Source: Psammoneis japonica (Eukaryota). Taken from it: 64,000 bases of DNA. The stretch spans positions 1 through 64,000 of the forward strand of contig QPGO01000283.1 in NCBI GenBank assembly GCA_008632985.1, given 5' to 3'. The number at the start of each line of letters is the position of its first letter. The first letter of the stretch is position 1. Under the pieces are notes generated by a model that saw nothing but the letters and a program-made list of their open reading frames with translations, was not told where the DNA came from and searched no databases. Position numbers and translations under genes: made by a program. Shown in pieces: positions 29,936 through 52,699 of the stretch.

Positions 29936-29939
29936 GGAG

Positions 29940-30217
29940 TGACAGGATTTGAGTGGGATTTAGATGCGCGCGAAATGTCGCGCGCTATTTAGTTTGCCGC
30001 GCACAGTTTTGTGTGCTCTTTAGTTCCGCGCGCACGCGGGCGACGCAGTTTGCTTTCGAGCCACTCGGCTCACAAGAATGACAACAGTAGCCCGATTGTG
30101 CCGACTTACATGTCTTTTGGCTCCTGCAACGGTCTCTGAGCGGAGACTCATCTGCTATTTAGACAGCAGCAAGGAGTTGTTGTTTGAATTCTTGCCATTT
30201 GCCTTCAATTTCTGTCA
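29940..30217 (+). repeat. 3' LTR of Copia 23106-30217
   Basis: Matches 23106-23383 and is followed by the TSD CCAAC. Confidence 0.95.
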
Positions 30218-30328
30218 CCAACGGGGTTGAGGTGCGATTCTCTCCTGCCTTAACGAAGTCTTGGTGTTGGTTGCATGAGGTGAAAGCTTCATCTTGAACT
30301 TGTTATCTTCTGTGGTGTGTGTGCACAA

Positions 30329-30707
30329 TGCACTGTGCTCAAAGAACGAGTGTAAACGAAAGTAGAACGAAGTTCAAAAAGTGAAAATTATGAGAATTAT
30401 TTCTACGCGATCATTTTGGGTTTCTCCGAACGGGTTCTCAACAGCCTAAACCTTTTGCACTGCTCCTACAGACAAAAGGCCTTTGGGAGAATACGATCGT
30501 GACAACAGATTGTCTGGATACGATTGACATTGACACACAAGATGTCAACTTCATCGTACAGTCGCATTTGCGATTCTCGACATCCGATCAACTCTGTGTG
30601 ATTGATCTGTCCTTCGTACGAACCCACGATTGACGTACGATTGGAATATAAATTTATGTTATACATGCATGTGCATATATATGACATACATGACAACGCA
30701 CATTGCA
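30329..30707 (-). repeat. 5' LTR of Gypsy A
   Basis: Matches 13404-13790. Confidence 0.92.
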
Positions 30708-31199
30708 CACGACTTGTCGAAACGCGACGACAATGGCGACCGCGAACGCAACACACTCCATCAACAGCCATAAATTCACCACAACACTGACATGTGTCGA
30801 TGTCACGTAATTCATTTCACATGTGTGTGCCTTGCTGTGCTTTGACATTGATTGATCTTAGCGAAAACAGCTGAAATGTTCAATTTTTTGCCCATCGCTT
30901 TTCCACTGCATAAGTCAACAACAAGCCCGTTACACTCACACATGTCAATTCTACCACACATGAGTTCATGAGATGCGAAATGTTGTTGATTGTTGTGGCT
31001 CTTGAAGGTGATGCCGTTGAGGAAACGGCAACCACAGAGTCGCCATGGTGTGGTGGTTTCCGCGGTTTCCGGCTACGGCATTTTAACGACGAATTCGCAG
31101 TGCTGAAACTGAGTCGTGCTTGTCGAGTTAGCATGGCTGCCACTTTATGCATCATGTGCCCACCATTCTTAGTGGTGGGGCGCCAGCAAAAAAAAAGGA

Positions 31200-31830
31200 C
31201 GTTTAGCAGAAAAAAACTCAGCTTGGGGGCCATGGGCTGGGTCGGCTCTTGCACCTCTCCATCCTTGTCGAATTGCTCTTCGATCTCTGCCATGGCCATG
31301 GCTGTCTTGCAGCAGTTGTCACACATCAGCCTGGCAAAAGCTTCCATGCTTGTTGTCAGCCAATCACTGACACCTTGTTTGTCTGCCATCTTAAAGTGCT
31401 CTGTTCCAGCCGCCAGGGAGCAGCACCTTTCCAAAAACCAGAAGTGCTTTTGTGGCAACGCCCTGCCCTTTTTGGCATCTTTGATGCTTGGCATTCCTTC
31501 ACATCCAGCCATCTCTAAGCAAGAATCAATGGATGAGAAGACTTCTCCATTGCATCTAGATGCCACCCACATCGTGCGCACCAACCATCTTTTTCCTAAA
31601 AACCTCCTGTCTGTTGTTTCATCTCTGGTTTAGTCTTTTTCCTCACTTTCTCCTTGTTCTCCTCCCACCAAACTGCACAGTCACTGGCGGCCACATTGAG
31701 GTGTTTGCAAACCTTTTTCTGTGTTTTGCTGCCAAAAGCCAACTCAACCTCATTGTGCATCATGAACTTGGTCTTTGGGTGCACTGCCATTGTAATGCAG
31801 GCCATCCATGAACTTCCTCTTCACTGCCTC
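31200..31830 (-). pseudogene. Decayed accessory ORF of a DNA transposon, similar in kind to 50700-52100
   Basis: VHPKTKF...WWEENKEKV and VSDWLTTSMEAFARLMCDNC share an EAFA.L...N(Y) motif with AEAFAHMLLKNSC at about 51480. Confidence 0.45.
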
Positions 31831-33540
31831 TGAGCTGACGATTAACATTCCCACAATCTCTACATTTTAAGATCTTGTTTCTGACATGTCATGGGTGCCA
31901 ACTGCAACCAAGGACACAATCTGTGTTAGCAGGCAAGCCCGCGTCTGTCTCAGTGTTGTTCTCACTGCAATGCATGCACCTGATGAATCATTTTGTACTG
32001 ACATGTTTGCCCACCCTTTTCACAGTGTTGTGGCACCAAAATTTTTCCCTTCGCATCAAACCCAGACCAAAGGTGTGCCTGCCAGCACGTCTGTTGGCCC
32101 TTCTTACTTTTTACTCCCTCTTTTTGAATGCCAAAATTTTCAAATGGCTCAGTTTTAAACATCAATTCTTGAATTTTGCATTTCATTTGATTGGCAGTTT
32201 TTGTCGTTTGCATGGCTTCACATTGCACCAGCAGGTCCACTGCACACTGCATGGTGCACACAATTGACAATGGTGCTGCCACTCATTGCACACCAGATTG
32301 TCCAAATTGCAAGCCAATTTTGTTTTTTGGGCTGCAGCCATGCTTCTAAAAGGGCTGTAATCCGAACACTCCATTTTGCATTTTTGGCAGGCTTGCAACT
32401 GGACTTCCTGCCTTCACTTTGCCGTCTGGCCTCCCATGCTCTTAGCCATCCCTCAGTGCCCGCCAATCCAGAGCATCGTTTGGCCAAGGCCACAGCAGCA
32501 ATTCAAACTTGCTGGGGTTTGGTTTTCCAGTGATTAAAACTTGCTGGGGTTTGGTTTTTTATCTTAGCCCTCCCTCATCATCTTGCTCTTGCCCTTCTTC
32601 CTTCCTCAATGTCATGTCTGGATCTTTCCAACCTGTAAAATTCAAACAAGTGCTCACAGCTGGTGTCCAATCCACTGTTGTGACCCTCTTGGGCAGCATG
32701 GACTCCTGCACAGTGCACCCTCAATCCCATGAGTTTTCATTGTAAAACACCATGTCTCCACCAACTGTGTCGGAGGAAAATGGTTGTCTGTGTGAGGCCA
32801 GGGAACCCTTCCCCTGTTGTGTCCTTCTTCCAGATGAACCACATGCAACATGGTGTTCTTGCCAGTTGTAAACAGATCATGTCTGCAAGATGGCAGATGA
32901 CACACAATTCTTGGGAATCTGCAAGCATTGTCTCCCAACTCGCACGCCACCACAATCGCTGAAGGCAGTTGTCTCCCCTTGCCAATGTGCTGCTGCACAT
33001 TAAAGTGGCTAAAACTGAGCATCAAAGTGACTTTGTCCATGTGTTCCTTGCAATGGACATGTCCAAAGCTCAACCACATCTCCAAAAATGGTTCAACACT
33101 GAACCTTGGATTGTCCAGCCATCCCACAATGATGCAACAATTGCAACTCTGAAAGTCGACACATGGCCTGCTTTTGTCCAGCTCACGATGTAAACCAGAA
33201 AATAAAAATGCACTCTCTGCGCAAATGCTGCACTGGCTTGGCAGTCCGGTGTTTCTGAATTAAAGCAAGCCTTGGGTTGCCATTGTCGCTCCGCATTTTC
33301 ATTGCACTGTCATGCTCAATTGCTTCTTGCAAAGTGTGGGTTGTGTGTCGCCCAATTTGTTTGTTCACTTCATCCATTTTCAACAGAGTTCTCATGTTTT
33401 GAGATAAGAAAAAATGTGTTCTGTGGTGCCTTCCATCGCTGCAAGGCTTCCCAGGCTACCCAGCATGCCCCACTGTTGGCAACTTGAACAGAGCACATTC
33501 AACGCAAGCACCGAGTCTCCATTGCTGTCATTTTGCCCCA

Positions 33541-33967
33541 TGTGTGCACCAGGCGCTGAAAAAGAAGATGTGTTACGACTTTGTCGTTGTGAAAATTATG
33601 AGCTAGTTTAGAGTAGAGAAAATGGGATCATGTGAATAGGGAATCTTGCCAAATCCCTATTCGTTCACATTTGGATCGCATCAAATCGATCGTGCATTCG
33701 CATTGTGGATCGTGCGAATCAAGCCATCACGCGCCATGCACGAGTGATGTCATCGTGTGGAATCACGCTGCCATCGTGGGCCAGACGACGGGCTAGTGTG
33801 CTTCACACGGATGCTCTCTTAGCATCCTTCTGGAATTGCCTGACCTAGAGCCACGCCCTCCTGTGGTCGTGCTTCCCAGGTGCGTGTTAACAACACTGCG
33901 TTGCCACGCACAAGAGGCTCATGCGTGCACGGTCTCGCCGTGTTGTCCAGCAGCGAGGCATGCTGCA
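33541..33967 (-). repeat. 3' LTR of Gypsy B
   Basis: ccaggcgctgaaaaagaagatgtg...gaggcatgctgca matches 44139-44563. Confidence 0.92.
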
Positions 33968-34006
33968 CACTCCCCCATGATCAGGGCCATTAAGTGACAG
34001 GATGTC

Positions 34007-34419
34007 TCACTGGTGACAGGGTGCAATCTGCCGTAGATTGTACGTGTCTGTCAGCGCTCCGTTCTGGATACGCAACGTGCCGTTGTCATGTGCACAGACA
34101 ACTCTGGCGGGTCCTGCACAGCTGTCAGAACCACATTTAGAGGATTGTTCCTGTTTGACAAGTGCCAATTGCCCTGCGGTGTGTTGATGCTCCTTGCGTT
34201 TCTGATTTTCATGCTTGTTGTTTAAGTGGACAAGCTTCTGCTTTCTGGTTTCCATGCACTTCCACTCAGCACGATGGGCAACAGATAAAACCGCATCGCA
34301 TCCGAAGACCAATTGCATGGACTTGCACGCGTGGTCGCATGTGCCGCAGCTCTAATGGCGAAGGCTGCTGCGGAGAGGATGCCACTCCATGGGTCATCTT
34401 CGTCCAGTTCCACATCCTG
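34007..34419 (-). pseudogene. Gypsy B integrase C-terminus
   Basis: ELDEDDPWSGILSAAAFAIRA... continues ...GNMVRSFSVQD from 39866. Confidence 0.85.
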
Positions 34420-34815
34420 TGCAGCAACTCACTCGCACGCTTCTGACACACAGCATTAATTTTGGACATTAGATTAATGTAGCCATTTGAGAGAGGCTCG
34501 CCAGCGTTCGCTAACGCTTGGGCTCCCCTCTCTTCGGTCTACTCACTTCTTTGTTTTGACATCAGTTTCAGCTTGAGCTTGCACTGTAATTACAGTCGAT
34601 TGTAAAGAGCTGAATGAGAAACAACGATGCAACTAACAGGCTTACGAAACAAGAGAAAAGAACATTGAGAGCGAAGGCAGCGAATTGGGCTTTGGAACAA
34701 AAACGGCAAAAGGAGACACGAAAACAATGCGAACAGGATTTGGCGATTCGGGTTGCACAACTCGAGTCGAAGGTAGAGTGCTTGAAGCAGTTTCTTGGAG
34801 GACCAACTTGGCCTG

Positions 34816-36033
34816 ATGAGCAATCGCGAGAGTCTTAAAGAACCGTGCATTTTGCATGCTGTGAAATTTGCTCATTCGGATTTGGAACTTGTAAAATTTA
34901 CTCAATCGCATGATGATGGTAGCACGCGTACGAAGAAGTGCCCTTGTTTTGACGGAACTAATGGCATTGAAGCGTTGTTGTTCGTGGAAGATCGTTTTCG
35001 TAAACTGGCTGCAAAACTTGAATTCACTGCAGGCAAAGAACCATTTGATAATTTCGAGGAAGTGTTGACAGACACCGCTGAAGATAAATGGTCCAATCTC
35101 ACCATGGCGATTCCGAATGCGCAAAAGATGGTGGCTCGTTTTGACCAAGAATTGGCTCGTTTTTATTTGTCACATTGTGAAACTGAAGCACGTGACACGA
35201 TGACTGAATGCTTGCTCTCTCTTAAAAAACCATGTGATGTTGAAGTGCAGGCACATGCGGATCGAATGGAGACCTCAGTGCGACACACGAACAAGTTGCC
35301 AGGAAATAATCCAGTTGTCACTCAGAACCAAAAGAAGAAGATGATCTTCGATGGCTTCCCTTTGTCGTGGCGTGAGATGTGTGCAAGAGCAGGACGCACG
35401 ATTGGAAATGATGCGCTGGCGGAAATTGTAACGCACATGAGCACGGAGAAATCATTTGCAGATGGGAACAAGAAGACTTCGAAGAAGCGCAAAGACGGAC
35501 AGTCGAAAGGTGGCGGCTCTACCAAGAAGAAAGGCAATCGCATTGACCCAGAATCTCAATGTCCTTTGCATGCTCACAATCACAAGTGGAAAGATTGCGT
35601 CATGAATCCCGACTCTAACAACTGCCGTCCAAGAACTGATCGCGGAGGTCGCGGACATGGTGGCCGTGGCGGTCGAGGTGGCGGTCGAGGTGGAGGTCGT
35701 GGTTATGGCGGAGCGCAAGGTCGTGGTTGGCAAGGCCGTGGCCATCAAGGTCGTGGTGGTGGCCGAGGAAACTATGGTGGTCACGGAAACTGTAACTCTG
35801 GCGGCAATGGCGGCGAGCATCATGATGATGGTGGCTCTTACATGCAATGTCAAAACGACACCCGAACCAATGCAGATGGCGGCGGTTACGGCAATCCGGC
35901 CAGAACGGCTCCTCCCAATGATTGGTCTGCTGAAAGCCATCATCTTGATTCGACAGGAAGGCCTCGAGAGCATCGAGGTGGAACGGGAAGTTTTCGACCT
36001 GGTGGTCGCTTCTCGGGACGCGGTCGACACTGA
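34816..36033 (+). pseudogene. Gypsy C gag with a CHHC knuckle and RGG-rich tail
   Basis: Open frame with CPLHAHNHKWKDC followed by RGGRGHGGRGGRGG repeats. Start uncertain. Confidence 0.85.
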
Positions 36034-39000
36034 CCCAATGAGCTTGAAGAGCTGTCGTCCGAGTGTGTCACTCCTGATTTTTACATGTTTGATGATTGCA
36101 CTGATTGCATTGATGATTGTTGTGCACACGCTGCTGATTTATTTGATGATGACGATTTCGGAAATCATGCTGTGAATGACGAAGATGATGTGGGAAATTG
36201 AGTGCGCTGCACCAACCCCAAAAACAAAACCAACAAAACCATTAAATGTGGTCCCTGCAACCTTGTTCGCGGCGCGATTCATTCAAGATAAGGAAAGCAA
36301 GCGCGTGATGCGGGTGTCACTTGATTCCGGTGGAACCCATTCAATGATTCATGCTCGGGTGTTGCCGGTTGGAGCGGTTCCAGCATTGGAAGAGACAGGA
36401 CCGATTCGTGCAAAGTTTGGGACAGTGGCAGGAGAATTCAAAATCAACTCGTTATGTTCGACTGCAGGACTTGGTGCTCCCTGAATTCGATGAGACCAAA
36501 CATGTTGACTGCATGCATGCGCATGTGTTTGACTCACCCTGCCAACATGATGTGATCCTTGGACAGGACTTCTTGGCGAGAGCGGGTGTCACGTTGGATT
36601 TCGAACACGGAATTGTCAAGTGGCTCGGTTCAAGCATTGCAATGAAGCCGAAGAATCAACGGACTGGCATCCAGCAATGGCTTGATGATTTAACTGATGA
36701 GCTAGCTAATGATGATGATGTGTGGGATGGTTACATCCTCGATGCAAAGTGTGAGGAGACGTCCCCGTCTGAAGTGGCTTCAGCTCAGAAGCATCTTACT
36801 GCCGAACAGCAAGAGAAATTGCGTCTCGTGTTGGAGAAACACACTGCTCTTTTTGATGGCACCCTTGGCAAGCACACTGGCGAAAAAGTTCACCTTGACA
36901 TTGATCCTAATGCCATTCCGTACCATTCTCGAGCGCATGCAGTGCCGCACAATGATCTCGAGACTTTTAAGCAAGAATTAGATCACTCAGTGGCTCTTGG
37001 CATTCTTGAAGAAACCGGAACTTCGGAATGGGCTGCAGGTGCCTTTATTCGACCGAAGAAAGATGGTCGAGTACGGTGGCTCAGCGATTTTCGGGAACTC
37101 AACAAAGCCCTCAAGCGCAAGGTTTATCCCTTACCGATCATTCAAGATGTGTTGCAAAAGAGAGCCGGGTGCAAATTTCTTGCAAAATTGGATCTCTCAA
37201 TGATGCACCATACGTTTGAACTGGACGACGATTCCAAAGATCTGACGACAATCGTGACACCCTTTGGAAAGTGTCGACACTGCCGTCTAGCAATGGGTTT
37301 GAAGCCAGCTCCAGATGTTGCGCAATGCTTGATTGAGAAAACTGTGCATGACTTGGACGTTGACGCGTACATTGATGATCTCGCTCAATTTGATGACAAT
37401 TTTGATGTTCACCTTACTCGTCTCGACAAACTCCTGCAACGTTTGGAAGAAGCTGGATTTAAAGTGAACCCTTTGAAATGTGAATGGTGTGTGCAGGAAA
37501 CGGATTTCCTTGGGCATTGGCTAACTCCGACTGGAATTCGTCCGTGGAAGAAGAAAGTGGAAGCCATTCTGCGAATGCAACCTCCGGAAAATGTCAAGCA
37601 GCTTCGTTCGTTCCTTGGTGCTGTGACATGCTATCGTAACATGTGGCCTCGGCGTTCTCACTTGTTGAAACCCTTGACAGATCTCACAGGCAAAGGCTCG
37701 TGGACGTGGACAGCAGATTGTCAGGCAGCGTTCGAAGAGATGAAAGCAGCACTAGCGGCCGAGACGTCAATGGCGTGTCCGAATCATAACAAACCCTTCC
37801 ACATTTATGCCGATGCCAGTGATTGCCAAATGGGCGCAGTGATTGTACAAGATGGAAAACCCATTGCATGTTGGTCTCGAAAGCTGAACGCGGCGCAACA
37901 AAACCACTCGACGATCGAAAAAGAACTCTTGGCCATTGTCATGTGCTTCCGCGAATTCCGAACAATGCTCCTTGGCGGCAATTTGCATGTGTTCACTGAC
38001 CACAAGAACCTCACCTTTCGCACCTTGAATTCACAACGTGCACTCCGTTGGCGCCTCTTTCTGGAAGACTTTGCCCCTCAATTCCATCACATCGAAGGCC
38101 GCTTGAATGTCTTGGCTGATTGTTTTTCTCGTTTACCTCACATGGATCCTCCCTCTGAAGGGAAGAGTTTGGCTCCGGGTAAAGGAACTGTTGTTGATTT
38201 TGCTCCGCTCGATTCGAAGTTGGTGCCGAGTGAGGAACCATCCGAAGTCGAGGATTTCCGCGATGAGGACTTGGAGCTTGGCGCATGCCGATTCAAGTGT
38301 TGTCGCAACATTGAAAATGAAGGCCACTCACACTTCTTCTCTTTCTTTGTTGATGAGCCGGAACTGTTTGATTCTTTTTTGAATTACCCTACGATGCAGG
38401 AGATGCAAAATCCAATGACGTTACAACGGATTCAAGAGCACCAGTTCGAGGACCAACAATTGAACCAGATGCGCATTGCTCACCCTGATCGTTTTCTCGT
38501 GGAACATGTGAATAATCGACCGCTTGTGTGTTGTCGTATGCGATCAAATGATCCTCCAGGACAGTGGAAAATCTGTTTGCCGACTGCGCTCATGCCCAAC
38601 ATCTTACGGTGGTGTCATCTCGTCCTTGGCCATGCCGGAAGCCAGCGCATGCGTGAAACAATCCAGGCTCATTGTCATCACCCTGGGTTGCGTCGCATGT
38701 GTGATGAATGTTCTTGTGCTGATTGCCAACGTAACAAAACTTTGGGTCCTGGCTGTGGAGAGCTGCCCGAATGAGAAGCTCCATTGACTCCCTGGTCGGA
38801 AGTGGCGGTTGACCTCATTGGCCCGTGGAAAATCAAAGCACCAAATGGAGAGATTGAGTTTCGCGCGTTGACCTGTGTTGATCCTGTCTCTAATCTTGTT
38901 GAACTGGTGAGAATTGAGAATAAAACTGCTCGACATGTTGCCAACCAATTCAAAAACTGCTGGCTTGCACGCTGTCCCAGACCAAATCGATGCATCCACG

Positions 39001-39578
39001 ACAACGGCGGCGAGTTCACCGGATGTGAGTTTCAGATGCTATTGCAACGAGCCGGAATTAATGATGTGCCGACTGCTTCATACAACCCTCAAGCCAACGC
39101 CATTTGTGAACGAATGCACCAGACTGTCGGCAATGTGTTGCGCATGCTCATTGCTTCTGATCCACCTCAAAACCTTCAGGATGCAGCTAGCCTCGTGGAC
39201 GATGCTTTGGCAACTGCAATGCATGCAACCCGCTGTGCTGTTTCCCGTTCCTTACAGATTTCACCAGGTGCTGTGGTGTTCGGACGTGACATGATCTTGG
39301 ATGTCCCAGCACTGGCAGATTTGTTGATGATTCAAGGCCATCGCCAGATGCTGATCAACGACAACTTGCGACGAGCTGATGCCAAGAGAAGATCCTGCGA
39401 TTGTCAAGTGGGCGATCAAGTTCTAATCAAGTGCATTGAGCCATCCAGACTCGAACCTCGTGCTCATGGTCCTTGTCCCATTGTTCAAGTGCATGTAAAT
39501 GGCACACTCTCGGTTCGTCGAGCTCCTCATGTGGTTGAGCACCTCAACATTCGGCGCCCAATTCCTTTTCACGGTTGA
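36034..39578 (+). pseudogene. Gypsy C pol (PR, RT, RH, INT), frameshift near 36450 and stop at 38772
   Basis: SLDSGGT (PR), SDFRELNK and AYIDDL (RT), IYADASD (RH), GHAGSQR..CADC, VAVDLIGPW, IHDNGGEF and NPQANAICER (INT). Confidence 0.93.
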
Positions 39579-39865
39579 TCAGGGGGTTTTCTTCCCAACA
39601 CCTGGGTTTCCTCCTGTCATTGTCTTTACTTTTGGTTTTGGTCCTTGGTTTTTGGCCCTTTGCATGATCCTCCAGTTCTTTCGGATCATGGAAGGGAAGA
39701 GTGCAGCAACTCACTCGCACGCTTCTGATGTGTGGCATTAATTTTGGACATTAGATTGACGCAGCCGTTTGAGAGAGGCTCGCCAGCGTTCGCTGATGCT
39801 CAGGCTCCCCTCTCTTCGGTCTGCTCACTTCTTTGTTTTGACATCAGTTTCAGCTTGAGCTTGCA

Positions 39866-42800
39866 TCCTGCACTGAAAAGGAACGCACCATGTTACCAAG
39901 TGTCTGGTGCACACGTTCCACTGTGGCACTCGCCTGTGGATTCCGTTTGCTTGTGGGTTTCTTCAAAATCCCATGGTCATTTTTAATCATCTGGCTAAAT
40001 TCTGCCACAAATTCTGTCCCACGGTCACAAACCACCTGGGTTGGCCACGGATGTCTGCACAGCCACGTTTGTTCCACGACGTTTGCTACGACGTCTGCGC
40101 GTTTCGTAGACACTTCTTCAATCTCGAACCACCCGGTTGCTGGGTCAATCATTGTGACTGCCCACAATTGCAAAGTGTTCTTTCCGCGTCTTTGAATTTT
40201 ATATGGCCCCATCATGTCTGTGCACAGAGTCTCCCATGGAATCATCTCTGCGACCTTTTCTGGCAGCTTCCCATGACGCTGTGTTCGGCGTTTTGTCTTC
40301 TGGCATCGATCGCACTTAACGCACGTAGAATGCACCGTAGACCTCACACTGGGCCAGCAGAAGTGCTGGGCAATGGACATTTCCGTACGTGTCTCACCTG
40401 GATGACACAGTGTCTCGTGGTGCCATTCAGTTAGCGGAACCTGCAATGACTGTGGTGCTGCGATTTTGTCCTTATGACAGATTAACTGTTGTGATGACCC
40501 TCCCCCACGATGCGCGCAAATGGAGCAGTCGGACGAGTCCTCAGCTCGTGAGAGTAGGCGCTTGTCCTTTTGTTGTGCTTTTTGAATGCGCTTGAAGCTA
40601 ACAGGCAGAGACATCTCATCTTGCGCCTCTGCATTAAAAGCTTCATGCAAAGGACGACTCAATGGAGTGTCTTTTACATCCGGATTGGCCTCGGAAGGCA
40701 AGCTGGGTGCTGGTCGAAGGTGACTAAGAGCGTCAGTGACTGGGTCATGGGTGCCCTCAACACAGCGTTTCTTCGCATGTTAACCGCCAGCGCATGACAC
40801 GCTCGGCATTGAATGCTTTGTACGTGAGATTTTTATGATCAGCACATACAATCATACGATGACCAAGGAGAATCGTTCGAAATTCTTTCAACGTCTCCAC
40901 AATGGCGAGCAATTCTCTCTCCGTTGTTGCACAATTTAATTGCGCACTGTTGAGCTTTCTGCTGCAAAAGGCGACAGGTTTATTATCTTGGGATATAACT
41001 GCTCCCAATTGACACTTAGAGGCATCGGCATGTGTCTCAAAGGGTTTGTTAAAATCAGGATGTGACAACAAAACATCATCCGACATCACCCGTTTAACGG
41101 TTTCGAACGCCTCGTCTTCAACGGACGTCCACTCCCACTTAACAGTCTCACTTGCGAGTCGTGTTGGCGGAGCCAAGACTTCAGAACGTCTAATCCACGT
41201 GTCACGGCAGCAGTTCACCACACCAACAAATGAGCGCAGGTCGCGTTTGTTGGTTGGGCTCGCGATTCACTTGATGGCGTCGACTTTATCAGGCATTGGT
41301 CGCACTCCGTCTCTGTTGACCAGATGGCCCAAATGTTCTAATTGGGTTTGACAGAAATGAGATTTAGTTGCGTTAACTTTTAGTCCTGCTTTCTGGACCC
41401 TCAACAAAACTTCTTCAAGTTTGTTGAGGTGATCTTCATGGGTGCCTTTTGTCATGACGAGAAGGTCATCTAAGCATGTTCGAATGAACAACAGATCTTC
41501 AAATGAGCCTGACATGCGTTCTTGGAAAATGTCTGGTGAATTACACAATCCCATGGGCAATGCCTGCATCTCACACTTGCCCCACGGGAAGATGAGCGTG
41601 CAGAGCTTCTTGCCATCAGCATCCAATCGGATAACCCTGCTCATGCACAGATGGTCCCCAGAGACCATCTGTGCACTGTCGCCTGCACAGATGGTCTCCA
41701 GAGACCATCTGTGCAGCTGCGTTAAATTCTACGTGTTTGTGCCAGGAAAATGTACCTCCAACCTATCCGGCAGGCGTGAGAAATATTTTATGTACGAGAA
41801 AGAGTTCGTTGGGGCAGGCGAACAACATCACTCTATGAAGTGACTGGTACAAAACCTACGTAAATGCACAGATGCGCTCTGGAGCATGTCTGTGCAAATT
41901 CGAGCTCGTAAATAATAAGCAGGGATATGACAATAGCCCACATTTAAATCCAGTGATGTAGCCCACATAAAGCCTTCGAGCTTAAGTAGCACATCTTGGA
42001 TATGAGGAATCGGATAAGGCAATCGCTTGATCCGTTTATTCAGCTCTCTGAAATCATTAATAAAGCGTACCGTTAAATCTTTCTTCGGTATGATAAATGA
42101 TGGAGCTGCCCATTGGGATCGGTTAACGCGTTTGAGAACACCGATACGTACTAGGCGTTCTACTTCTTTACGTAGCGTAGCTTCGTACGCACGAGGTACT
42201 TTATACGGACGAGCGTGGTATGGTTCTACACCCTCCTTAAGTTGGATATGGTAGGGTTCTCCCTTCCATTCTCCTAATGTCCCATCAAATAAGGACTCAT
42301 GGCGTTTCAATAGTGCCAAAAGGTCGTTTTATTGAACTATAGAAAATCTTATTGCCCCTCGCGTTATGTCCTCGAGGCAGGCCGGCGCGTACTTAGCGTC
42401 TAAAATACGCGAAATCCGGTCGGTTTCCGAAGATAAGGCTTCTGGATCTTGAAGATAGAAGGAGGTTTCTACCGTAGCATCTACGTGCCTCATTGGTACT
42501 TCTCCATTGACTAATGGCCACTCTATCATCTGTTTAGAGAAGACAATATCAATGCCTTGTGTCTCCAGAATGTCACGTCCAATAATCATATCGTACTTGC
42601 CCAACTTTCCGTTGTGTACGTGGACGGTATGTTTAAGTTCTGCAGTTTCGGATAATTCTGGTAACCGAGATTTAACGGTACAGTCGTTAGACGTACTGAA
42701 CGAGCCTGCTACCGTGGTCCAGTTTGTCTCAGCCGTTGAATGGCTTCGCAGACGTTTACAGTATCGACTATCGAGTAGAGTACTGCTGGCGCCACGATCT

Positions 42801-42900
42801 AGCAGTGCCTTAATAGTTTGAGTCTTGCCCTTGCCATGTTTAGCATTCATAGCTATAAACAAGATTGGAGTAAGATGAGTCTTTTTAACTCGTTTGCGGG
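39866..42900 (-). pseudogene. Gypsy B pol, RT split by the MITE at 41635-41924
   Basis: LLDRGAS (PR), QWAAPSFI, NDFRELNK, SLDLNVGYCH/IRLD and IRTCLDDLL (RT), HADASKCQLG (RH), CHPGETRT and VCDRGTEF (INT). Confidence 0.92.
41635..41924. mobile_element. 290-bp MITE with CCC...GGG ends (piggyBac-like)
   Basis: TIR ccctgctcat / ataagcaggg (9 of 10 match), flanks ATAA/ATAT. Removing the element plus one flank restores RT GYCHIRLD. Confidence 0.85.
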
Positions 42901-42994
42901 ATTGGCCTACAACACGTGTACGATGGTAATTCAGTTGTTCATTTATACATTCATCTAATGTATTAAAACTACCTGTATCGTGTCGGCCCCCTTC

Positions 42995-44040
42995 TCAGGT
43001 GTCCGAATCTTCGGAATCACTTAAGTTGAGGTCGCGGAAGTGATTGAGCTCCTGCTCGCGTGCCTTGCGCTTTTTCTGAGCGTTGGCAAAGAACTCCTCG
43101 ACCTTCGATCCGATGAGAGCATTAATGTCTTCCTCATTCCGAGGTTTTGCATTAGGTTTGCTGCCTCCGTTGTTGGAATGTCCAGTCTTGACATGTTTTA
43201 CGTGGTGCTTGAGCTGACGGCAATCCTCCGCATGATGTCCACAGTTAGTCCCGTGCAGCGTGCACGACTTCTGGGTGTTCCGTTGGGTCGTGATCAACGA
43301 CTCAGGATTGTCCGTTCTACATCCCCGCTTACGTGGAACCTTAGCATATTGGTCCAGGTTACCTTCGGTGAGCTCGACCTGCTCGATGCGCTCGCAGAAC
43401 TGTGCAAATTCGGCGACAGCATGCGCCAACAGGTCAAAATTCTGTAGCGTCATGAACTTCTGCCATGCGTTCGGCACACCGTACTCGAACATGTCGCACA
43501 GTTCGTCATCAGGTGATGGTGCTGGTGCTTCTCCATCCTCCGTCACGGGTGGAAACTGAGAGATGCAGCCATTAATTTCAACAGCCCTCGCGACGTAGTC
43601 ACGAGTAGAAACCTCTGCGGGCTTGCGCATGAAGCGCCTCAGATGACGCTTCTGCAATGGTGCCGCCCCATGTGGGAAGATACTTTCCTTTAGCTTCGCG
43701 ATGCATGCTGCGTGCGTGGCGTTGGTTTGGGATGCCTGCTTGTCAGCGGCATTGTTCAATGACGTCAGAGCATCGCCCTGCAGTGGGTCACGCATGAGGG
43801 CAAATTTCGCTGGCCCGGTCGTGATGTTTTGTCCTTCGTGCATGCGATCCACGTTGTGTAGAAAGATCAGGAGTGTCTTGCATGTAGCCGCAGAAAGGTG
43901 CGGAATGCCCATCTCGTGCGTTGGACTGTCCTGATCAGTGGGTTGTTACGCAGCTTGAACGTCTGGCACTTGCCCTGCTGCAGCTCTTTCTTCTCCGGCC
44001 GTGCAAACGGAATCGGTGGCTTGGTCCGCTTCTTCATGGT
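42995..44040 (-). pseudogene. Gypsy B gag, frameshifted near 43930
   Basis: PPIPFARPEKKEL, LQGDALTS, IFPHGAAPLQKRHLRR and knuckle CTLHGTNCGHHAEDC. Homologous to Gypsy A gag. Confidence 0.85.
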
Positions 44041-44138
44041 CGTTTTAAGATTTGTCGGTCCTGCCAACATTTCGTAGTTTCGTTTCTGTGGATTTCGTTG
44101 CCTCGCACAACATGCGGGAGCAACACCACTGTGCCCTG

Positions 44139-44563
44139 TGCATGTGCCAGGCGCTGAAAAAGAAGATGTGTTACGACTTTGTCGTTGTGAAAATTATGAG
44201 CTAGTTTAGAGTAGAGAAAATGGGATCATGTGAATGGGGAATCTTGCCAAATCCCCATTCGTTCGCATTTGGATCGCATCAAATCGATCGTGCGTTCGCA
44301 TTGTGGATCGTGCGAATCAAGCCATCACGCGCCATGCACGAGTGATGTCATCATGTGGAATCACGCCACCATCGTGGGCCAGATGACGGGCTAGTGTGCT
44401 TCACACAGATGCTCTCTTAGCATCCTTCTGGAATTGCCTAAGACCTGGAGCCACGCCCTCCTGTGGTCGTGCTTCCCAGGTGCGTGTTAACAATGCTACG
44501 TTGCCACGTACAAGAGGCTCATGCACGGTCTCGCCGTGTTGTCCAGTGGCGAGGCATGCTGCA
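44139..44563 (-). repeat. 5' LTR of Gypsy B
   Basis: Matches 33541-33967. Confidence 0.92.
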
Positions 44564-47329
44564 ATTTGCATCTCCACTTTTTTGGGATTGTTGTGTCAAT
44601 GCTGCATGGGAAGTTCTTTGCACAGTCACTGATCTCAAAATTTTGTAAATGGGTCAATTGTCCAGGCTTTCTCTGCCAGGAAAAATGCAGCATCCTTAAA
44701 TAAAATGACCAAGGCATGTTGTTTGTGCATCTTTTGTTTTGTGCAATGAATGACATGCACTGCTGCAGCTTTCTGTTTTATGTTGCTGAAACAGAACACA
44801 AAATTTTGATGTTCACTCCTCATTGTGTTGCTTGATTTTTACTGATTTATGATCTAATTCAATGAGCTGTCACAAAAACAGGTTGCTCATTTGTTTATGA
44901 TCATTTTTCATTCATTGGGACATTTGGTGTAACTTGGCTTGTAGTCCCATGTGGTGCTGTCACATGTGATGGCACTGGCAATCACATGATGGCACCAGCG
45001 ATCACAATGTCACACAGCAACACAACAACTGCGTTGCTGAGCCTTCTTGCCAGGTTGCACCCTCTCCATGCTGCCACATCTATTGTCACCTTCCATGGTG
45101 TTGTCATGTCTGCTTTCCACTTGGCATCTCATCTCCCTCCCCTTCCGACAGGACTGGATTGCAAAAACAGCACAATCTCTTGGCAACACATGCACTTCCA
45201 ACCTGGTCAGCATGTTGGCAAAAGGACCTTGATTTACAAAAAGGTCTCTTCTGTTGGCTTGTCTCCTGCGGATGCAAATCATCTGTTCTGAACACTCGAC
45301 ATGGACAGAGTTCTAAACACACTTCCCACCGGCCAAGCTTTGGTCATTTGGCCAAGATCGCTGCATCACTGCTCACAGGTTTACATGGATAAATGTCTGT
45401 TGTCTGCATTGAGGGAGGTGGCAGAGGAATTGTCATGGCAGGCAGCCACACAAAGAGAGGCAGATGCAAGGAGAAAGGCTCTGTGTTGCAAAAGAAAGGG
45501 TGTCCATGATGCAAACAGTGAGGAAAATCATGCATCTGCTGAAGGGGTGGGTGGTTCTTCTGTTGTTTCCTGCATGAGATGTCAGCAGAGGTTTGCGTTT
45601 GCTTAGACTGTTTTGGGAAGGCAAGCTCTTCCCACCCCACACCATTTTGCAGAACTGCCACCAAAGACAAACAAAGAACTGATGACAGTGAATCTTGCAC
45701 TGCCAATCACACAGTCCAAGAAAACCCCAGTGGTTGTGATGGCACAGCTTCCACAAGCACTCATGCTGTCCAACAATTGCCAGAAGAAGCTGGAGATGAT
45801 GAGTGTTGTGATGGACCCCTCTTTTCTGATCAAGCGGAGTTAGACAACCATGATTTCAGACTTTGCACCACATTGGCAGACGGTGCAGAAATCTCCACTG
45901 CAGAGAACAATGATGTCACAAAAAACACATTGGTCATTGGCATGGTGTTTGGCAATGAAACAACCAATGCATCCACCCAGGAATGTCGAGACACCGTACA
46001 TTGCAATGCACCAGTCAGCACTGGTTTCAATGTCCACACTGTTGACTGCAGTGTGACAAACACTTCTAATCCAGCCAAATCACATGAACGCTGACGTCTG
46101 GGCTCTTCATCAATCTAAGAATTGGACTGCCAATGAATGCACCCACAACTCCACATCCATGGACGTTGTGCACATGCCCAGTTTGCACTTCAATGACAGA
46201 TTTTTGACAAATTCTTTCTTCAGTCAATCATTCACCCATTTCTGTCTAAAGATGTTGGACGTTGGCAATGTGCATCTGCCAATCAACTTGCAGGTTGCTG
46301 AGGGTCTGTTCAAAAACTGGCCAGCAGTTGGCAAAGTCTGGATTGTCAGATGCCTGTGCCAGGATCAATGGGAGGAAATGCCTCTCTTCCATCCCACAGT
46401 GGTGGTGCCACTGGAATATCATGGAAAGGAAGGAGACTCACTTCACCAGAGCAAAGATTGTGGAGTTACATTGTCGGAGTTTAGCTCATCTTTGTGCGCA
46501 TGTCACCTTGCTTTTGCTTTTTGCTCATTCCAACCAATCATCTGTAATTTGTCTCCAGATGAAGGGGTGGTTTCTGACAATGAACATGAACCAGTTGGAA
46601 CTTTTCCCCCACCAATGTGGACAAAATGAGTTTCATTGCACCAGCTCCACACAGAAGCAGTTGCATTGCTGCCGCTTCTTGTGAGGTTGCCCACTCATTG
46701 ATGGAAGGCGATGGCATTGATGGCAAGGTTTGCATGCAATGTTGGGATCTCAATGGATGGGGATGGAGTCACATGTGAACTTGTGGAGTTGGCTTGGTGT
46801 TGGAGTGGGACCCTGTTGCAACAAATTCAATGGGAGGAGAGCCAAGGGTGGAAGAGGCAGCAACGTCCCCTGGTTCTTTGAATTTTCCCATTTGCAAATG
46901 TTCGCCATGAGCACCATCTGATTGATGGGAAGAAACAGCACAAATGCTTTGAGAAAAGGAGAGTTTGCAGGGAAAACAAGTTCTTAGGTGGTGTTGAAGA
47001 CCAGTTTGGAGGAAACGTTTGCCACACATGGGACAATCATTTCCCACAGTGAAGGAGGTTGCCATTGTTCATGTTACAAAAACAAGTGAGATGGAGATGC
47101 ATGGGGTGAGCCACGTGGTAAAAATGACATGTGGCAGGTGACAAGATTGTGTTGGATGAGTCAACTTGTGTGTCACCATGCAAGATCATGCTTTGGCTTA
47201 ATGTGCAACATCAGTTGTCTGCATGCCAGCATGTGGTGCTTGCATCAAGCAATTAACAACATGAGACAACAAATCCAACTTTCCACAGTGATGGAAATTT
47301 TGTCATGCTGGCACGCATCTTGGATTTGT

Positions 47330-48130
47330 GTGCAACCAAATGTCCTGATGGACAGTCAAGCTCTTCTGGCATGCTCTCCCACCTGACAGATGCTAGCACC
47401 TGCATCTCCAGCCTAAAAATTCTTCAGACATGCTTGCTGATCTTCCTCATGGTTTCCATGCATCCATCTGCCTGTCGTCCCAACTCGGCAATGGCATCAT
47501 GCAACCTCTCCTTTAACTCTTTCATGCTTCTGCACTCATCTGGCTGTGTCCTTGCCCATCTTTTCTGGGAGTCATGCTGGAGTTCCACAGCTCCATGCAC
47601 TCTGTCTCCCCAACCCCGACACAACCTCACTTTGCCCTCTTTCAGCAGACCCTCAACAGCTTCTCCAACAGCAAGGCCTTCCAGAGATTGTTTCTTTGCC
47701 CTCATCCAGCTGGCTTGTTTGCTGCAATCTGCCAACTCGAGGCACACCTTTGAATTCCTGTTGACTTCCCAGCCCTTTCTTTTGGATTCCTGTTAACCTC
47801 CTGGCCCTCATCTGTGGATTCCTTTAAACTTCCCAGCCCTTGAACAACACCTCTCTTTTGTCAGAGCTTCATGGCTTGCTGACTGGCACACATTTGGTCT
47901 CACCATCTCCCAACCCATCGTGTGGCTCATGAATGCACAACTGATGCTGCCAGCCAATGTCACCCTGTCAACTGGATGCAAAAGCTAAAAAGCAAGCACA
48001 AGACCCACAACTCAACCTGAGTTGCAAATGCAAAGTTGCCACATTGTTGTCCACAATTGTCAGTGTGTCCCACACTGCAACTTTGCATGTCTGTCTTATG
48101 AAAACTGCCTCTGACCCCAATGTTCCAGCA
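47330..48130 (-). repeat. Second copy of the unknown repeat at 1-1010
   Basis: Nucleotide and peptide similarity to 60-830. Confidence 0.6.
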
Positions 48131-48189
48131 CCTTCCCTCTGCTTCTCATGTGTCTCAGGTGGGATGGCAACAATGTTGTTCATCTCATG

Positions 48190-48400
48190 GGAGTGATGTG
48201 CAAGCTGCTTGGTCTTGCCTTTTAATGCATCCATTGGTGGACCCCAAATGGCTGCCATTGTGTCCATGTCTTTGGAAGTGATGGACAAGTTCTTCACATG
48301 GTTCAAATGTAAAAACTGCTTGAAATCCCTCACACTGGGAATTCCAGTCTTCTGATGTATTCTGAGTGCTCAGTGCTCAGTGCTCACCACCTCCCTCTCT
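48190..48400 (-). pseudogene. Copia pol fragment (pre-integrase region)
   Basis: PSVRDFKQ...ITSKDMDTMAAIWGPPMDALKGKTK matches the diatom Copia pattern PS..DF...VT..DI..A..IWGP....LKGKT. Confidence 0.6.
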
Positions 48401-49199
48401 TGGTGCAGCCTGCAGTGTTCTGTTCTGCCACTGGAACCACAGTTCCAGATGCACTCCTGTGCTTCTTGTTTCTCTTGTTCTTTTTCTTTGACAGCATGCT
48501 CACATGAGATTCACTTCCCCAGAGTTCATCAACATGGTCAAAGAATCTCTGGCTTGGTGCAAAAGCAGATGTGGCCCCATGACATTTGCTCCAAGCACCA
48601 TGACTTTTGGCAATCTTGAACCAATTGTCATGTGCAACATCTTGTTGGTGCTTGCAGTCCAGGGACTTGTGACTGTTCTTGTCATCTCTTTGCTCATTGT
48701 TCTTTCTTTTGTGTTAATTGAGAGGATTGTCATCTTTTAGATGGTTCAATGCTGGCACATCCATTGCCTTCACTAGAGTCTTCAGACAGGCAGGTGCCTT
48801 TGCCCAGACCACATTCTTTCATGAAGCTCTTCTTTGAGCTCTTGCAATGGTGATCATTGCTGTTCTTCAAGTGTGGAGTTTCCATCTTGGCACTCCTTGG
48901 TGTTGGAGATAAATGCATCCAACATTCACTCCAAAGAGTTGCTGGCACTGCCTTCAGTGCTAACAGACACTGACCTGTGTGCAGTCATTTGAACACTGAA
49001 CACCTGGACAATGAGTGGCAGAGGTGGTGGTGGTGAACAAATGACCAAGGCCAAAGTTGTGGTCATGGCAGAGGTGACAAGAGTTGCAGTTCCTCCAACT
49101 AAAAGAAGAAACCAACACCAAGATGTGTTTTCAGTCTGAGATGAAGTTCTGTGCTTTGTCACTGAACAGCAATGCTTGCAATGCCGCACATGAAGATGT

Positions 49200-50295
49200 T
49201 GACAGGATTTAAACAAGATTTTAGTTTGTCACACACACTCACATGTGCTCTCAGTTCTGCACACGACGTGTGATGCAGTTTGCTTTTGAGCCACTTGGCT
49301 CACAAGAATGACAACAGCAGCACCAATGTCACAACACCAGTCTTTCAGCTCCTGTGGTGGCATCTGCATGGATGCTCATCTGCTGTTTAGACAGCAGCAA
49401 GGAGTCAATGTTTTCTTCCACCCAGTCATCTTCATTTTCTGTCAGATGGACAGTCTCTTTCATTTTCATCCATTGTTGGGCATTCATCATCATTTTGACA
49501 ATGCGCATTGTTGTTGGTGGAAGCATGTGCCTGCCTTCCTCACTGCTGCATGTTGGATTAGATCAGTGCATTTTGATTCATTCACGGATTGTTGTCACCG
49601 GATGTGTTTGTTCAACGGATGTTCATTTGGTCAGGAATTCTCACATTCTCCTGCACTTGAGATTCTAAATTCCCTGCAGCAGATTCTACCCTCATTGGCA
49701 GACAGACCACAATCCATCCTCACACATTCACACACACAGGATGCATTCCAACTGCCATGACCACTGCCCCATGTCTGCCCCGGACTGCTGGTTTTCTGCA
49801 GCTCTGCAAGGTCCACAAGGATGACTGTGAGAGGAAGCAGTTTGTGATTGCAGCCTGCATTGGGGCAAGGATGCCTTTCCCATGTTTGTTCATCCCTCCA
49901 CAGTGCCTGTTTGGACGGCCTGATCAGGTCATCCAACCAATGCAAAATGGGAACAGTTTTGGGGGATTTGTCCACCTCCAGTTGGCTTGTCAGCAAGGGC
50001 ATTTAACCCATTGCTCCGCTCTCAAGCAACCCAAGGCATCACCAGCCAATCACCAGCCAAGGGTTTGGACATGCTGGCACAACTCTGTGGAATGGTGGAT
50101 GGGAAACTCAGCACTTGACTGTGAATGGGACAGCACAACCTGTCAGCTTCTGATTTGTGACACAGTTCAAGTTTCAAGTTAATTCAAGTTCAACCTCTGG
50201 CCCAAGTTCCAACACTCTCCTCAGTTGCACCATGGTCCTCACCTGACAGCAACAAACCAATGGCTTTGAGCACATCTTGGGCACTGTTCTGAACA
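49200..50295 (+). mobile_element. Old 3'-truncated Copia related to 23106-30217 (LTR 49200-49444, 5' UTR, start of gag)
   Basis: tgacaggattt...ttttctgtca LTR, decayed PBS gatggacagtc, UTR homologous to 23384-24322, and atggtcctcacctgacagcaacaaacc matching gag MVLTRQQQT. Confidence 0.85.
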
Positions 50296-50699
50296 TCAGG
50301 GGCCCAAATTAATGAATCCTTGCTTCTGCAGCCAACCTGATTTGTGACTTAATCAGTCAGATTTGCCATGAATCACATGAATTTATGACAAACTCATGTG
50401 ATTGTAAACAAACAAATGTCCTGCACCTTCAACAAACATCCGGTGGATTGAATCAGTGACATGCAACACAACAAGTTCATTGTCCAACCCAACAAGTTCA
50501 TTGTGCCACCCAATGAGTTTGCTGCTGTCCAACAATTTGACACAAACAAAACATTACATTTGACGACAATTGACAACTGACTGACAATGGATGTGTTGAC
50601 TTGTTTCCCAAATGACCATTTTGCAAGGATGCCATTCAATTTGCTTGCCAATCGGAGTGCTGTAATTCAATCTGTCAATTTATGCTCACTCTACATTGT

Positions 50700-52100
50700 C
50701 ACTTGAAATTGTGCGAATGTTGCATCTGATCAATTGTCTGCCAAACAGGCATCAACTCCAGTTTGCATGTCTCCGTGCAGTCCACCATGTGGTCAGAGTC
50801 GTTCTCCTGCTCCCCTTTCCTGTCACACTTGGCCCTTGTCATCCTGCACATCTCTTCCCATTTGCCCAGTCGCTCATCCCAGATGTCTTGCTTGATTTCC
50901 CTCACCATTTTCTCAAAGAACTTGTTTGCCCTCGGCAACCATCCTTTGCTCTTCCTGGGCATCTTGCATCATCTCCTCAAAGTGCCTTCTTTCTCTCCTC
51001 TCTTGGCATCTTCCACCATGAAGTGCTTCAGGCATCTCATGTGTTTTCTCTTCTTAGCACCAAACTCCCTGTCTGGAAGGTTCTTGTGGCCCTCCAGCTC
51101 TGTGGTGACCTCTGTCAAAACAGACAACTGGTCCTGTGTCATTTTCTCCACTCTCACCTTCTTGATGCATTTGTTGCAGTTGTTGATCAACTTCTCCCCC
51201 ACCTCCTTGAACTCGTTCACCAACTCATCAACCGTTCCTTGCTCTGTGGTCTCTTCAGGGTCTTTCTCCAAAATGGTGAATGTGCTTGATGCATTTTCTT
51301 CATCCTTCCACTTGGCAATGGCAATGTCTGGCAGCATGGTTTCACACAAGTCTCCCCTTCCAGTTGGGTTTCCTGGGTCGTCAACATCCACACAGCAGTC
51401 CATCATCAAATGGCTCCCCTTGTTGTTGCTCTTGTGGTGCTCTGTAATCCACACAACACAACTGTTCTTGAGGAGCATGTGGGCGAATGCCTCGGCACAC
51501 GATGTGCCCAACCTTTTGTTTTTGGACAGGCTCTTCTTCCAATGAATTTCTCCAATGACAGGTTTCAACAAGCAGTCATAGAACCCTGTCTGCAATGCAG
51601 GATTCAACAATTGCTCCTGGAATCGTTCTGGCGATGGCAAGATGCAACTGTGCTTGTTGCAGTGTGCACAAAGGGCTGTGTCAGTGTGTACAAAGGGCTG
51701 CGTGTCATGAGCAACAACACCACACTGATGTCAACATTTTGTTCCCTCATCCATGACAATCCTCCGTGACAACACTTGCCGTGAAGCTTGTCTTGCTGTG
51801 CTTGACATGCATTCAACCACTTCATCATCAGCCAATCATGGTGCGTTCTGCTTTCTTTCATTTTCATCCACAGGAAATGCAGGTGTGTCTTCTGCTCTGC
51901 CTCTGGCAGCTCTGAAAGCATTCTGTCCATTGGCGTTGGTCCACAATTCTGGGCGCAGTCTCTGTAAAGCATTCCAGTTTCCTCTGGCTGTTCTGCATCA
52001 AACACGAATGTGATGCTAAGACCTTTTCTTTGACATGTTCTCTCACCTTGACTGTGTCTTTGCCCACCTTCTCCTTGTCATCCCCCTCCACTCAGCTGGA
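50700..52100 (-). pseudogene. Accessory ORF divergent from the Plavaka-like transposase
   Basis: FYDCLLKPVIGEIHWKK...AEAFAHMLLKNSCVVW and KGWLPRANKFF. Fragmented. Confidence 0.5.
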
Positions 52101-52699
52101 TTGATCGGCCTTTGCACCATGGTTGCCATGATGTCTCCAGATGTTGTGTGTGTCATTGCTTTCCAGTGCTTGTCTCAGAGTGTGGTGCTGTTGATTGTGT
52201 GCACATTCCTTCCCAAGGTGGTTTGCCATTGCAATCTGGATTTCCTTGCATTTGCGAATCTCACACTCCAAACATTAGATCAGCATTGATTTCACAGTTT
52301 GCATCATGTTCACTCATGCAATTCGAATTTACTCACCTGAGTTTCAAAATCAATGCAATGTCCTGTGACTGGATGACTGAATGTGCGATTTTTCCAGTTC
52401 CATTTCCCATTTGTCTGACATTTGTGTCTGTCCAGCTGCAAGGCACGACGTGCTTTCTCAATCAATGCCCACACATTTTCAACAATCCGATTTGAAAATC
52501 AATTGGTTCATTCGATTCCAACAATTTTCTTCCTGTCAGCATCTGTCTTGGCAACCCCCCCTGAAATTTGACCCTTTGCCCATGACTTGTCACCACCATT
52601 GCTGCCACAAGCCCCACCGAATCAGTCGTGTTGATGCTCCGGCCAGTGATTTGGGCACATTGTCCCAAGCTGCTGCATTGCTCCTTTGTCAATGACGTG

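Follow-up and report, generated by a model that had tools for sequence, protein, structure and literature searches.

Why should one retrotransposon insertion carry two mutation loads? The question arises in a 64,000-nucleotide stretch of the Psammoneis japonica genome (GCA_008632985.1, contig QPGO01000283.1, positions 1–64,000, forward strand; referred to throughout as the window), where a minus-strand Ty3/Gypsy element at 33534–44563, which itself carries a nested Gypsy (G3) and a 290-bp miniature inverted-repeat transposable element (MITE), is depleted of the dinucleotide TA on both sides of a TA-rich segment that encodes the protease and the N-terminal half of the reverse transcriptase (RT). 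The initial annotation of this locus described the segment as a sharply bounded, unmutated island within a hypermutated Gypsy and proposed that the targeting of the mutations depends on position. Our analysis confirmed that the island is real and highly non-random, and our best, if tentative, reading, to which we assign a probability of about 45%, is that a mutator acting in place targets these repeats patch by patch and that the protease/RT-N segment was never among its targets.

The TA-rich island and its borders

The density of TA was 0–5 per 100 bp over 39001–41700, 7–10 in 12 of the 13 bins of 41701–43000 (the exception, with 4, being 41801–41900, in the MITE) and 1 at 43001–43100; within 41723–42976 it is about 8.6 per 100 bp, up from a level of about 2. 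A two-change-point likelihood model fitted to all TA, CA and TG sites of 39866–44146 placed the island at 41723–42976 (support intervals 41710–41784 and 42970–43045; 2ΔlnL 101.4), with TA making up 0.42 of these sites inside the fitted island and 0.11 outside it, and the sharp bounds described in the initial annotation are thereby borne out. The density of RTAY sites, which the annotation had put forward as a check, gave the same picture: the left flank had 6 such sites over 1,766 bp and gag 3 over 948 bp, compared with 26 over the 1,069 bp of island. Since the sum of TA, CA and TG remained even over the segments (19.5 per 100 bp in the island, 20.1 in the left flank, 18.7 in gag and 20.9 in the LTR, long terminal repeat), the flanks look like island-type sequence in which approximately 70% of the TA has been turned into CA or TG.

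The host element has both LTRs and is flanked at both ends by the 4-bp target-site duplication (TSD) ATTT, as a Ty3/Gypsy LTR element should be, and its minus-strand Pfam matches follow the order RVP, RVT_1, RT_RNaseH(_2), Integrase_H2C2 and rve, that is, protease, RT, RNase H and integrase, with a pol that is collinear with a 1,096-residue homologue (P0121). All of its own parts lie on the minus strand. The 3′ LTR (TG...CA, 33534–33967; TA share 0.13) adjoins the TSD at 33530–33533, has a purine-rich tract just inside it and is followed by the 3′ internal end (33968–34419; TA 1.8 per 100 bp), which holds the polypurine tract (PPT) and the C-terminus of the integrase, the latter recovered by tblastn with residues 957–1096 of P0121. 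After the plus-strand G3 (34420–39865) comes the hypermutated left flank with integrase, RNase H and the C-terminal half of RT (39866–41634; Pfam rve, Integrase_H2C2, RT_RNaseH and RVT_1), then the MITE (41635–41924) and the Gypsy part of the island with the protease and the N-terminal half of RT (41925–42994; Pfam RVP and RVT_1), which has 8.6 TA per 100 bp and one in-frame TAA (42329–42331). An in-frame TGA (42995–42997), directly after which the pol of relatives begins, ends the gag open reading frame (ORF), which forms the hypermutated right flank (42998–43945; homologues P0241 and P0242; TA 2.0 per 100 bp), and the 5′ LTR (44132–44563) is followed by the second ATTT at 44564–44567.

Because the RT reading frame continues through the MITE and past the island's right border, the island belongs to the Gypsy and is no nested insert. 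The coding capacity of the element is not intact, with CLDD in place of YLDD, stops, the nested Gypsy and the MITE, and with 17 of 20 conserved tyrosines replaced in the C-terminal half of RT, RNase H and integrase. The closest protein match obtained in homologue searches was at most 58% identical, and only three homologues of gag were found. A sense-strand purine run, GAGAAGGGGG, at 42987–42996 overlaps the gag TGA at the sharp right border and resembles a G-rich 3′ PPT; such runs number four in 4.3 kb, and this one may be a central PPT or a coincidence.

Direction of the changes

The polarity of the changes was read against 50 full-length homologues of about 50% identity, and columns with Tyr in at least 50% of these were scored. 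Tyr was kept in 7/11 such columns of the island and replaced by Cys or His in 2/11, whereas the left flank kept Tyr in 2/20 and showed Cys or His in 17/20 (Fisher's test, p = 0.003 for Tyr kept and 0.0005 for Cys/His); in gag, likewise, five of the six alignable tyrosines of the closest homologue are matched by His or Cys. Two further statements of the initial annotation hold in the light of these counts, namely that the protease and the N-terminal half of RT keep their tyrosines (the peptides quoted are present) and that the RT on the other side of the MITE, with its CLDD, is saturated. Replacements that a single TA>TG or TA>CA step would explain numbered 39 in 1,800 bp of left flank versus 4 in 1,065 bp of island, three of the island's four being no more than 70 bp away from the MITE.

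The polarised changes of the left flank were divided into 24 to TG and 15 to CA, and among 128 windows of 500 bp only one showed a TG/CA skew at p<0.01; since both strands are affected, the process acts on double-stranded DNA. The polarised TA changes of 39923–41614 are nevertheless regionally biased (15 TG to 3 CA in RNase H and mostly CA in the last third of the integrase; split test, p = 0.009), while a search for strand-coordinated tracts gave a runs test that was not significant (p = 0.36) and a longest run that was marginal (p = 0.05). Processive mutation tracts, one of the causes suggested in the initial annotation, thus draw a little support from the regional bias and none from the runs test or from the 500-bp skew. 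RTAY as the specific target was rejected, the mutated share being only a little lower in TTA/TAA (about 24%) than in other contexts (about 35%; hand tally over LTR and repeat pairs), and TpA is the supported target motif.

Substitutions between LTR pairs

The LTRs of an element are identical at insertion, so that the differences within a pair record post-insertion change. All 18 substitutions between the LTRs of the main Gypsy were of the types TA/(CA or TG), CG/(CA or TG) or CA/TG (pyrimidine–purine, or YpR, transitions), as were all 15 in the G3 pair, and 17 of the 21 substitutions in the pair of a Copia element were TA- or CG-type transitions; TSDs matched in all three elements (main Gypsy ATTT, G3 TCCTG, Copia CCAAC). 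These substitutions being almost without exception of the TA and CG types, the decay is shown to be a DNA-level process acting on integrated copies, in which CpG decay accompanies TpA decay and both converge on a single CA/TG sink. The two LTR sequences of the main Gypsy (33534–33967 versus 44147–44563, 94.8% identity) differ at five sites with TA in one and a mutated form in the other and at six CA-versus-TG sites, and they keep eight TA in both, while the island keeps 92 TA. With ATTT on both sides of this element and LTRs of 94.8% identity, the claim of one insertion with two mutation loads is upheld.

The CA-versus-TG double differences (six in the main Gypsy pair, 33534–33967/44132–44563, and four in the G3 pair, 34420–34583/39701–39865) far exceed what a uniform per-site rate would predict from the single differences, an excess indicative of TA sites that are strongly hot. 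Three neighbouring sites of the G3 pair are TGTGTG in one LTR and CACACA in its partner.

Several known editing processes were considered and set aside. Fungal repeat-induced point mutation (RIP) was rejected because TpA is depleted in the targets (o/e, observed over expected, 0.03–0.4) and the polarity is TA to CA/TG; RNA hyperediting of the ADAR type because changes occur in both directions and distinguish the LTRs of one insertion; and editing of the APOBEC type on grounds of direction, strand and timing, the changes being at TpA, on both strands and post-integration. The 5-hydroxymethyluracil of dinoflagellates was weighed as a cause and dropped, as no link to it was found.

A second island and unequal LTRs in one insertion

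A second TA-rich island, at 13001–14400, belongs to another minus-strand Gypsy (G2) and comprises its 3′ LTR (13403–13790), the C-terminus of its integrase (13820–14299) and about 400 bp of outside flank; because this island extends past the LTR into flanking DNA, the patches ignore element borders. Two inserts interrupt G2, whose body lies at 19334–23105: one of about 5 kb and the Copia (23106–30217, CCAAC on both sides), the latter separating gag from the G2 5′ LTR (30328–30707). In the body, 5/31 Tyr columns were kept and 17/31 read Cys or His, as compared with 3/5 and 0/5 in the TA-rich tail.

The two G2 LTRs have decayed unequally: the 5′ LTR has lost 11 TA or CG (YpR) sites and the 3′ LTR one (binomial p = 0.006, for one pair among the four tested). 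Of the nine TA losses, six cluster in 28 bp (30664–30691), at the edge that adjoins TA-poor DNA. Since the LTRs were identical at insertion, the asymmetry arose later and cannot be explained by pre-integration recombination; it is direct evidence that the load depends on position within one insertion, and it backs independently the position-dependent targeting that the initial annotation had proposed from the main Gypsy. The two islands of the window have no sequence in common.

For the 4-bp duplication around G2 to match (CACA versus CACG), one CpG-type change must be granted. The insert of about 5 kb in the G2 integrase (c. 14250–19333) contains long open frames, and neither Pfam matches nor terminal repeats were found in it at E≤1e-10.

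The MITE at the left border

The MITE is non-coding and contains three copies of a 32-nt palindromic unit between terminal inverted repeats (TIRs), CCCTGCTCAT and ATAAGCAGGG, that match at nine of ten positions, with one T/C mismatch. ATA is duplicated at the two junctions, the left one carrying an additional A. According to the initial annotation the transition from mutated to unmutated sequence falls within the MITE, with a mutated left and an unmutated right TIR. Both TIRs are as quoted, but the single T/C mismatch is the sole basis for calling the left one mutated, and although the left 85 bp of the MITE are TA-free, they consist mostly of two copies of the 32-nt unit, which lacks TA in the TA-rich right half as well. 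The left border can accordingly not be assigned to the interior of the MITE, and this part of the annotation is unsupported. The TA-bearing part of the MITE has 6.8 TA per 100 bp.

One contig assembled from short reads of the sample described below joins 41628 to 41923, skipping 41629–41922 with three shared letters, and family copies without the MITE therefore exist. Summed read depth across the MITE was 2,300–5,100, in bins that include Gypsy edges, as against approximately 35–40 for single-copy contigs; no second copy was found within the 64-kb window. The MITE would probably have landed in the island because it needs an A/T-rich target of the ATA type, which is scarce in the depleted flanks.

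The island across the family

Short-read contigs of one sample, placed on 39000–45500 at a likeness of at least 90%, gave summed depths of 11,000–19,000 for the Gypsy body and 37,000–63,000 for the LTR, compared with approximately 35–40 for flanking contigs free of differences, from which we estimate a family of roughly 300–500 internal copies at that likeness. Depth was similar in the island (11,100–17,000) and the flanks (11,500–19,300). Two of the runs of this sample were very shallow, so that nothing but high-copy sequence can assemble from them; their contigs differed from the window copy at 2/163 and 5/316 letters in the island (1.2–1.6%) versus 15/215, 4/90 and 10/132 letters in the flanks (4.4–7.6%), and the 215-nt flank contig was TA-poor and had His at the YLDD codon where the window copy has Cys.

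Among the 40 best-supported of 147 places at which the majority of the family differs from the window copy, 32 lie in the main Gypsy: 15 in the left flank, 6 in gag, 8 in the 5′ untranslated region or LTR, 2 in the MITE and 1 in the Gypsy part of the island. This last, at 42716, is TG in the window copy and TA in 89% of the depth, and the window copy has TG or CA at about half of the flank, gag and LTR places among these 40, against CG in 82–100% of the family. Most of the family thus has TA-poor flanks around a TA-rich island, and in its island the window copy lies far nearer to the majority than in its flanks. Since this segment is TA-rich in most members of a high-copy family, causes acting at this locus alone are not the whole story; local chromatin, a boundary effect of the MITE and a one-off conversion, all raised in the initial annotation, are insufficient alone, and recombination stays a live rival.

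The Tyr codon of YLDD lies at 41475–41477, and one contig at approximately single-copy depth has T at 41475 (codon first base, + strand); judging from this contig, a less mutated copy with the YLDD tyrosine intact may be present elsewhere in the genome. Metagenome contigs scanned for a 30-mer taken from the island gave no match.

Possible explanations of the island

Under patch-wise targeting, the repeats would be eroded by two DNA-level transition processes with the same end point in CA/TG, namely TpA to CpA/TpG and ordinary CpG decay, both acting on integrated copies in patches with sharp edges (<100 bp) rather than evenly along the element. The protease and N-terminal RT segment would lie outside the targeted patches, would have been TA-rich in the lineage behind most of the approximately 300–500 copies, and would have kept that state in the window copy even as the LTRs, gag and the part with RT-C, RNase H and integrase continued to decay after the insertion. 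The signature and its polarity, the action after insertion, the dependence on position in single insertions and the family-wide state of the island are all observed, and patch-wise targeting accounts for what the LTR pairs show, for the unequal decay in G2, for the state that the family has in common and for the smaller CpG-type divergence seen in the island. That the segment escaped targeting altogether, rather than being restored, is what we infer, and the borders of the patches would be set by the footprint of a guide RNA, by a chromatin domain or by something else. A more specific version, in which a heritable guide with sequence specificity, for instance small RNAs or a chromatin mark that is copied, directs the mutator and has a footprint with edges of less than 100 bp, and in which the 1.07-kb protease/RT-N segment is free of guides and hence exempt in most copies, is in our view doubtful; were it true, the islands at 13001–14400 and in protease/RT-N would be direct read-outs of what the defence recognises.

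Several observations weigh against patch-wise targeting. Nested G3, in which 4/37 Tyr columns are kept and which is TA-depleted throughout, and the Copia have no island, and the exemption is therefore no general rule for LTR elements. Flank states are common to 61–95% of copies (40088, 41543 and 44196), so that much of the flank depletion is inherited, part of the contrast between island and flanks predates the insertion of the window copy, and one historical event in a master copy could explain the family pattern. Private loss of TA in the internal flanks amounts to 1–2 of the 15 left-flank differences, most of which are CpG-type, and these figures cover the best 40 of the 147 differing places, minor variants of the island lying outside that view. 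The contigs give no proof of the local assembly over either border and, to our knowledge, no mechanism is known by which an island would be exempted.

The main rival is a mosaic origin, in which a family that is non-autonomous (with dead RT-C, RNase H and integrase) is mobilised by an intact, TA-rich relative, and template switching between co-packaged RNAs or gene conversion in a master copy re-supplied the protease and the N-terminal half of RT before the family amplified; ectopic conversion from copies of the majority type may, in addition, have renewed the island of the window copy. Such an origin would suit the sharp, frame-preserving borders, a right border where gag stops and pol, a separate ORF in relatives, begins, and the lack of an island in G3 and the Copia. 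The island and the TA-poor flanks are both common to the family majority, as are the flank states found in 61–95% of copies, and the divergence of 1.2–1.6% for the island as against 4.4–7.6% for the flanks, with mostly CpG-type flank differences, fits a younger segment; the contig with T in the YLDD codon may hint at the less mutated copy. We nevertheless consider a mosaic possible rather than likely, as it leaves unexplained both the TA-type changes in the LTRs of the same copy, in whose island 92 TA and 26 RTAY sites persist, and the 11:1 asymmetry of G2, whose LTRs were identical at insertion. A donor was not found within the window, and the ranking of the 50 homologues by segment, admittedly a weak test, gave no hint that RT-N had another origin (rho 0.45–0.47 with RT-C and integrase). 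Were the island a recombination patch, the finding would be ordinary, yet it would still mark a TA-rich helper element.

Protection confined to this locus, with the MITE or nearby open chromatin acting as a boundary or protected domain, draws on the position of the MITE at the left border, on the end of the second island near another insertion junction (~14250) and on the unmutated state of the TA-bearing part of the MITE itself. It is improbable, however, given that the segment is TA-rich in most family copies, that copies free of the MITE exist and that the right border has no insertion; moreover, three of the four polarised island changes lie beside the MITE, whose own edge is thus unshielded, and an insertion that requires TA is expected in TA-rich DNA anyway. 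An assembly chimera, or a polishing collapse onto a young or consensus copy, might be suspected in a high-copy family whose island is nearly identical to the majority variant, the more so as none of the contigs listed was shown to bridge the island borders. We give this little credence: the flanks keep private letters against 82–100% of the family depth, so that polishing had not drawn this copy towards the consensus, reading frame and RT alignment are continuous over both borders and the MITE, the window holds a second, unrelated island, and even after a collapse the family majority would still have a TA-rich island between TA-poor flanks. Very improbable, finally, is the editing of reverse-transcription intermediates before integration, with the purine run at gag/pol serving as a central PPT that shields the DNA just downstream. 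The run lies exactly at the sharp border and resembles a G-rich 3′ PPT, and the pattern is intrinsic to the element and family-wide; but one of the four such runs in 4.3 kb lies within the island without effect (we estimate the chance of coincidence at about 7%), both strands are changed about equally, the left border shows no gradual gradient, and the LTR pairs, together with published mutation-accumulation lines, show action on integrated DNA.

Composition and other elements of the window

The window is dense in transposons, with three Gypsy elements and one Copia recognised by Pfam, and all of its recognisable TA-depleted sequence is transposon. Over the whole window the o/e ratios were 0.23 for TA, 0.53 for CG, 1.60 for CA and 1.59 for TG, and the 500-bp bins fell into three compositional states. 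The extreme state (1–12500, 31500–33500 and 44500–62500) has TA o/e of about 0.03–0.15, CG of about 0.0–0.3 and CA/TG near 1.9, and a Pfam scan of these stretches gave no matches; the moderate state (TA o/e 0.15–0.5, CG near 1) holds most of the recognisable elements; and TA o/e near 1 was reached only at 13001–14000 and 42001–43000. The Copia (24890–30217) matches 62715–57522 at merely 69.5% identity, on the strength of which the extreme class appears to be old transposon, at least in part old Copia. G3 has LTRs of 165 bp and a perfect 5-bp TSD, and no TA-rich island was seen along its length. A T-rich inverted match of 33 nt (94%; 12948–12980 and 31183–31215) flanks the whole G2/Copia complex.

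Significance and comparison with known systems

TpA hypermutation of foreign DNA has only just been described; saturated and untouched parts in one insertion, with borders of less than 100 bp, and LTRs that decayed 11:1 make the question of what directs it a mapping problem. Exempt, sharply bounded patches, seen twice in 64 kb, offer a handle on how the mutator is directed, and the borders at 41.7–42.0 kb, 42.98–43.02 kb, ~14.3 kb and ~30.65 kb are places at which small RNAs, base modifications and chromatin could be mapped. The window also shows the process striking LTR retrotransposons and continuing after insertion, with CpG decay running to the common CA/TG sink.

Fungal RIP changes C to T at CpA and so creates TpA from CpA/TpG in repeats. 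The process described here resembles it as a DNA-level, dinucleotide-specific transition mutator of repeats that leaves dead, skewed transposons, but here TpA is destroyed and there is no sign of a meiotic or duplication-sensing trigger. APOBEC3G converts C to U on one cDNA strand before integration, with a load that, in human immunodeficiency virus (HIV), drops sharply at polypurine tracts; a position-dependent load in a retroelement and a purine run at a sharp border are likenesses, whereas the changes here are at TpA, on both strands and after integration. Mosaic LTR families arise by template switching between co-packaged RNAs, which leaves in-frame patches with sharp homologous breakpoints in all descendants. 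The island shares with them its frame and its sharp edges, and differs in the post-insertion decay that varies by part and in the asymmetry of the G2 LTRs. A full-text literature search gave no report on islands within retrotransposons.

The closest parallel comes from Bigelowiella natans, whose integrated viral DNA undergoes TpA hypermutation (Mettrop et al., bioRxiv 10.64898/2026.01.13.699255); according to the preprint, TpA>TpG/CpA changes are confined to a 186-kb giant-virus insert and a 25-kb virophage insert, the hypermutation is episodic and occurs in a subset of lines, and a deaminase-based defence (adenosine deaminase) is proposed. The same source reports that reverse-transcriptase domains are enriched among TpA-depleted coding sequences and names fungal RIP as a parallel, and in its main text the terms retrotransposon, CpG, boundary and context are absent (10.64898/2026.01.13.699255). 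In the window, too, the changes run from TpA to TpG/CpA on both strands, affect integrated DNA (LTR differences in four elements) and occupy sharply delimited regions; the two systems share an almost exclusive TpA to TpG/CpA change on both strands of integrated DNA and delimited regions of foreign origin with TpA-depleted, CpA- and TpG-enriched clusters. Unlike the viral inserts of B. natans as described there, the targets here are LTR retrotransposons with CpG decay alongside, and patches of about 1.1–1.4 kb are exempt inside single insertions. The underlying TpA mutator is already described in that preprint, and the exempt patches within single insertions are the new detail.

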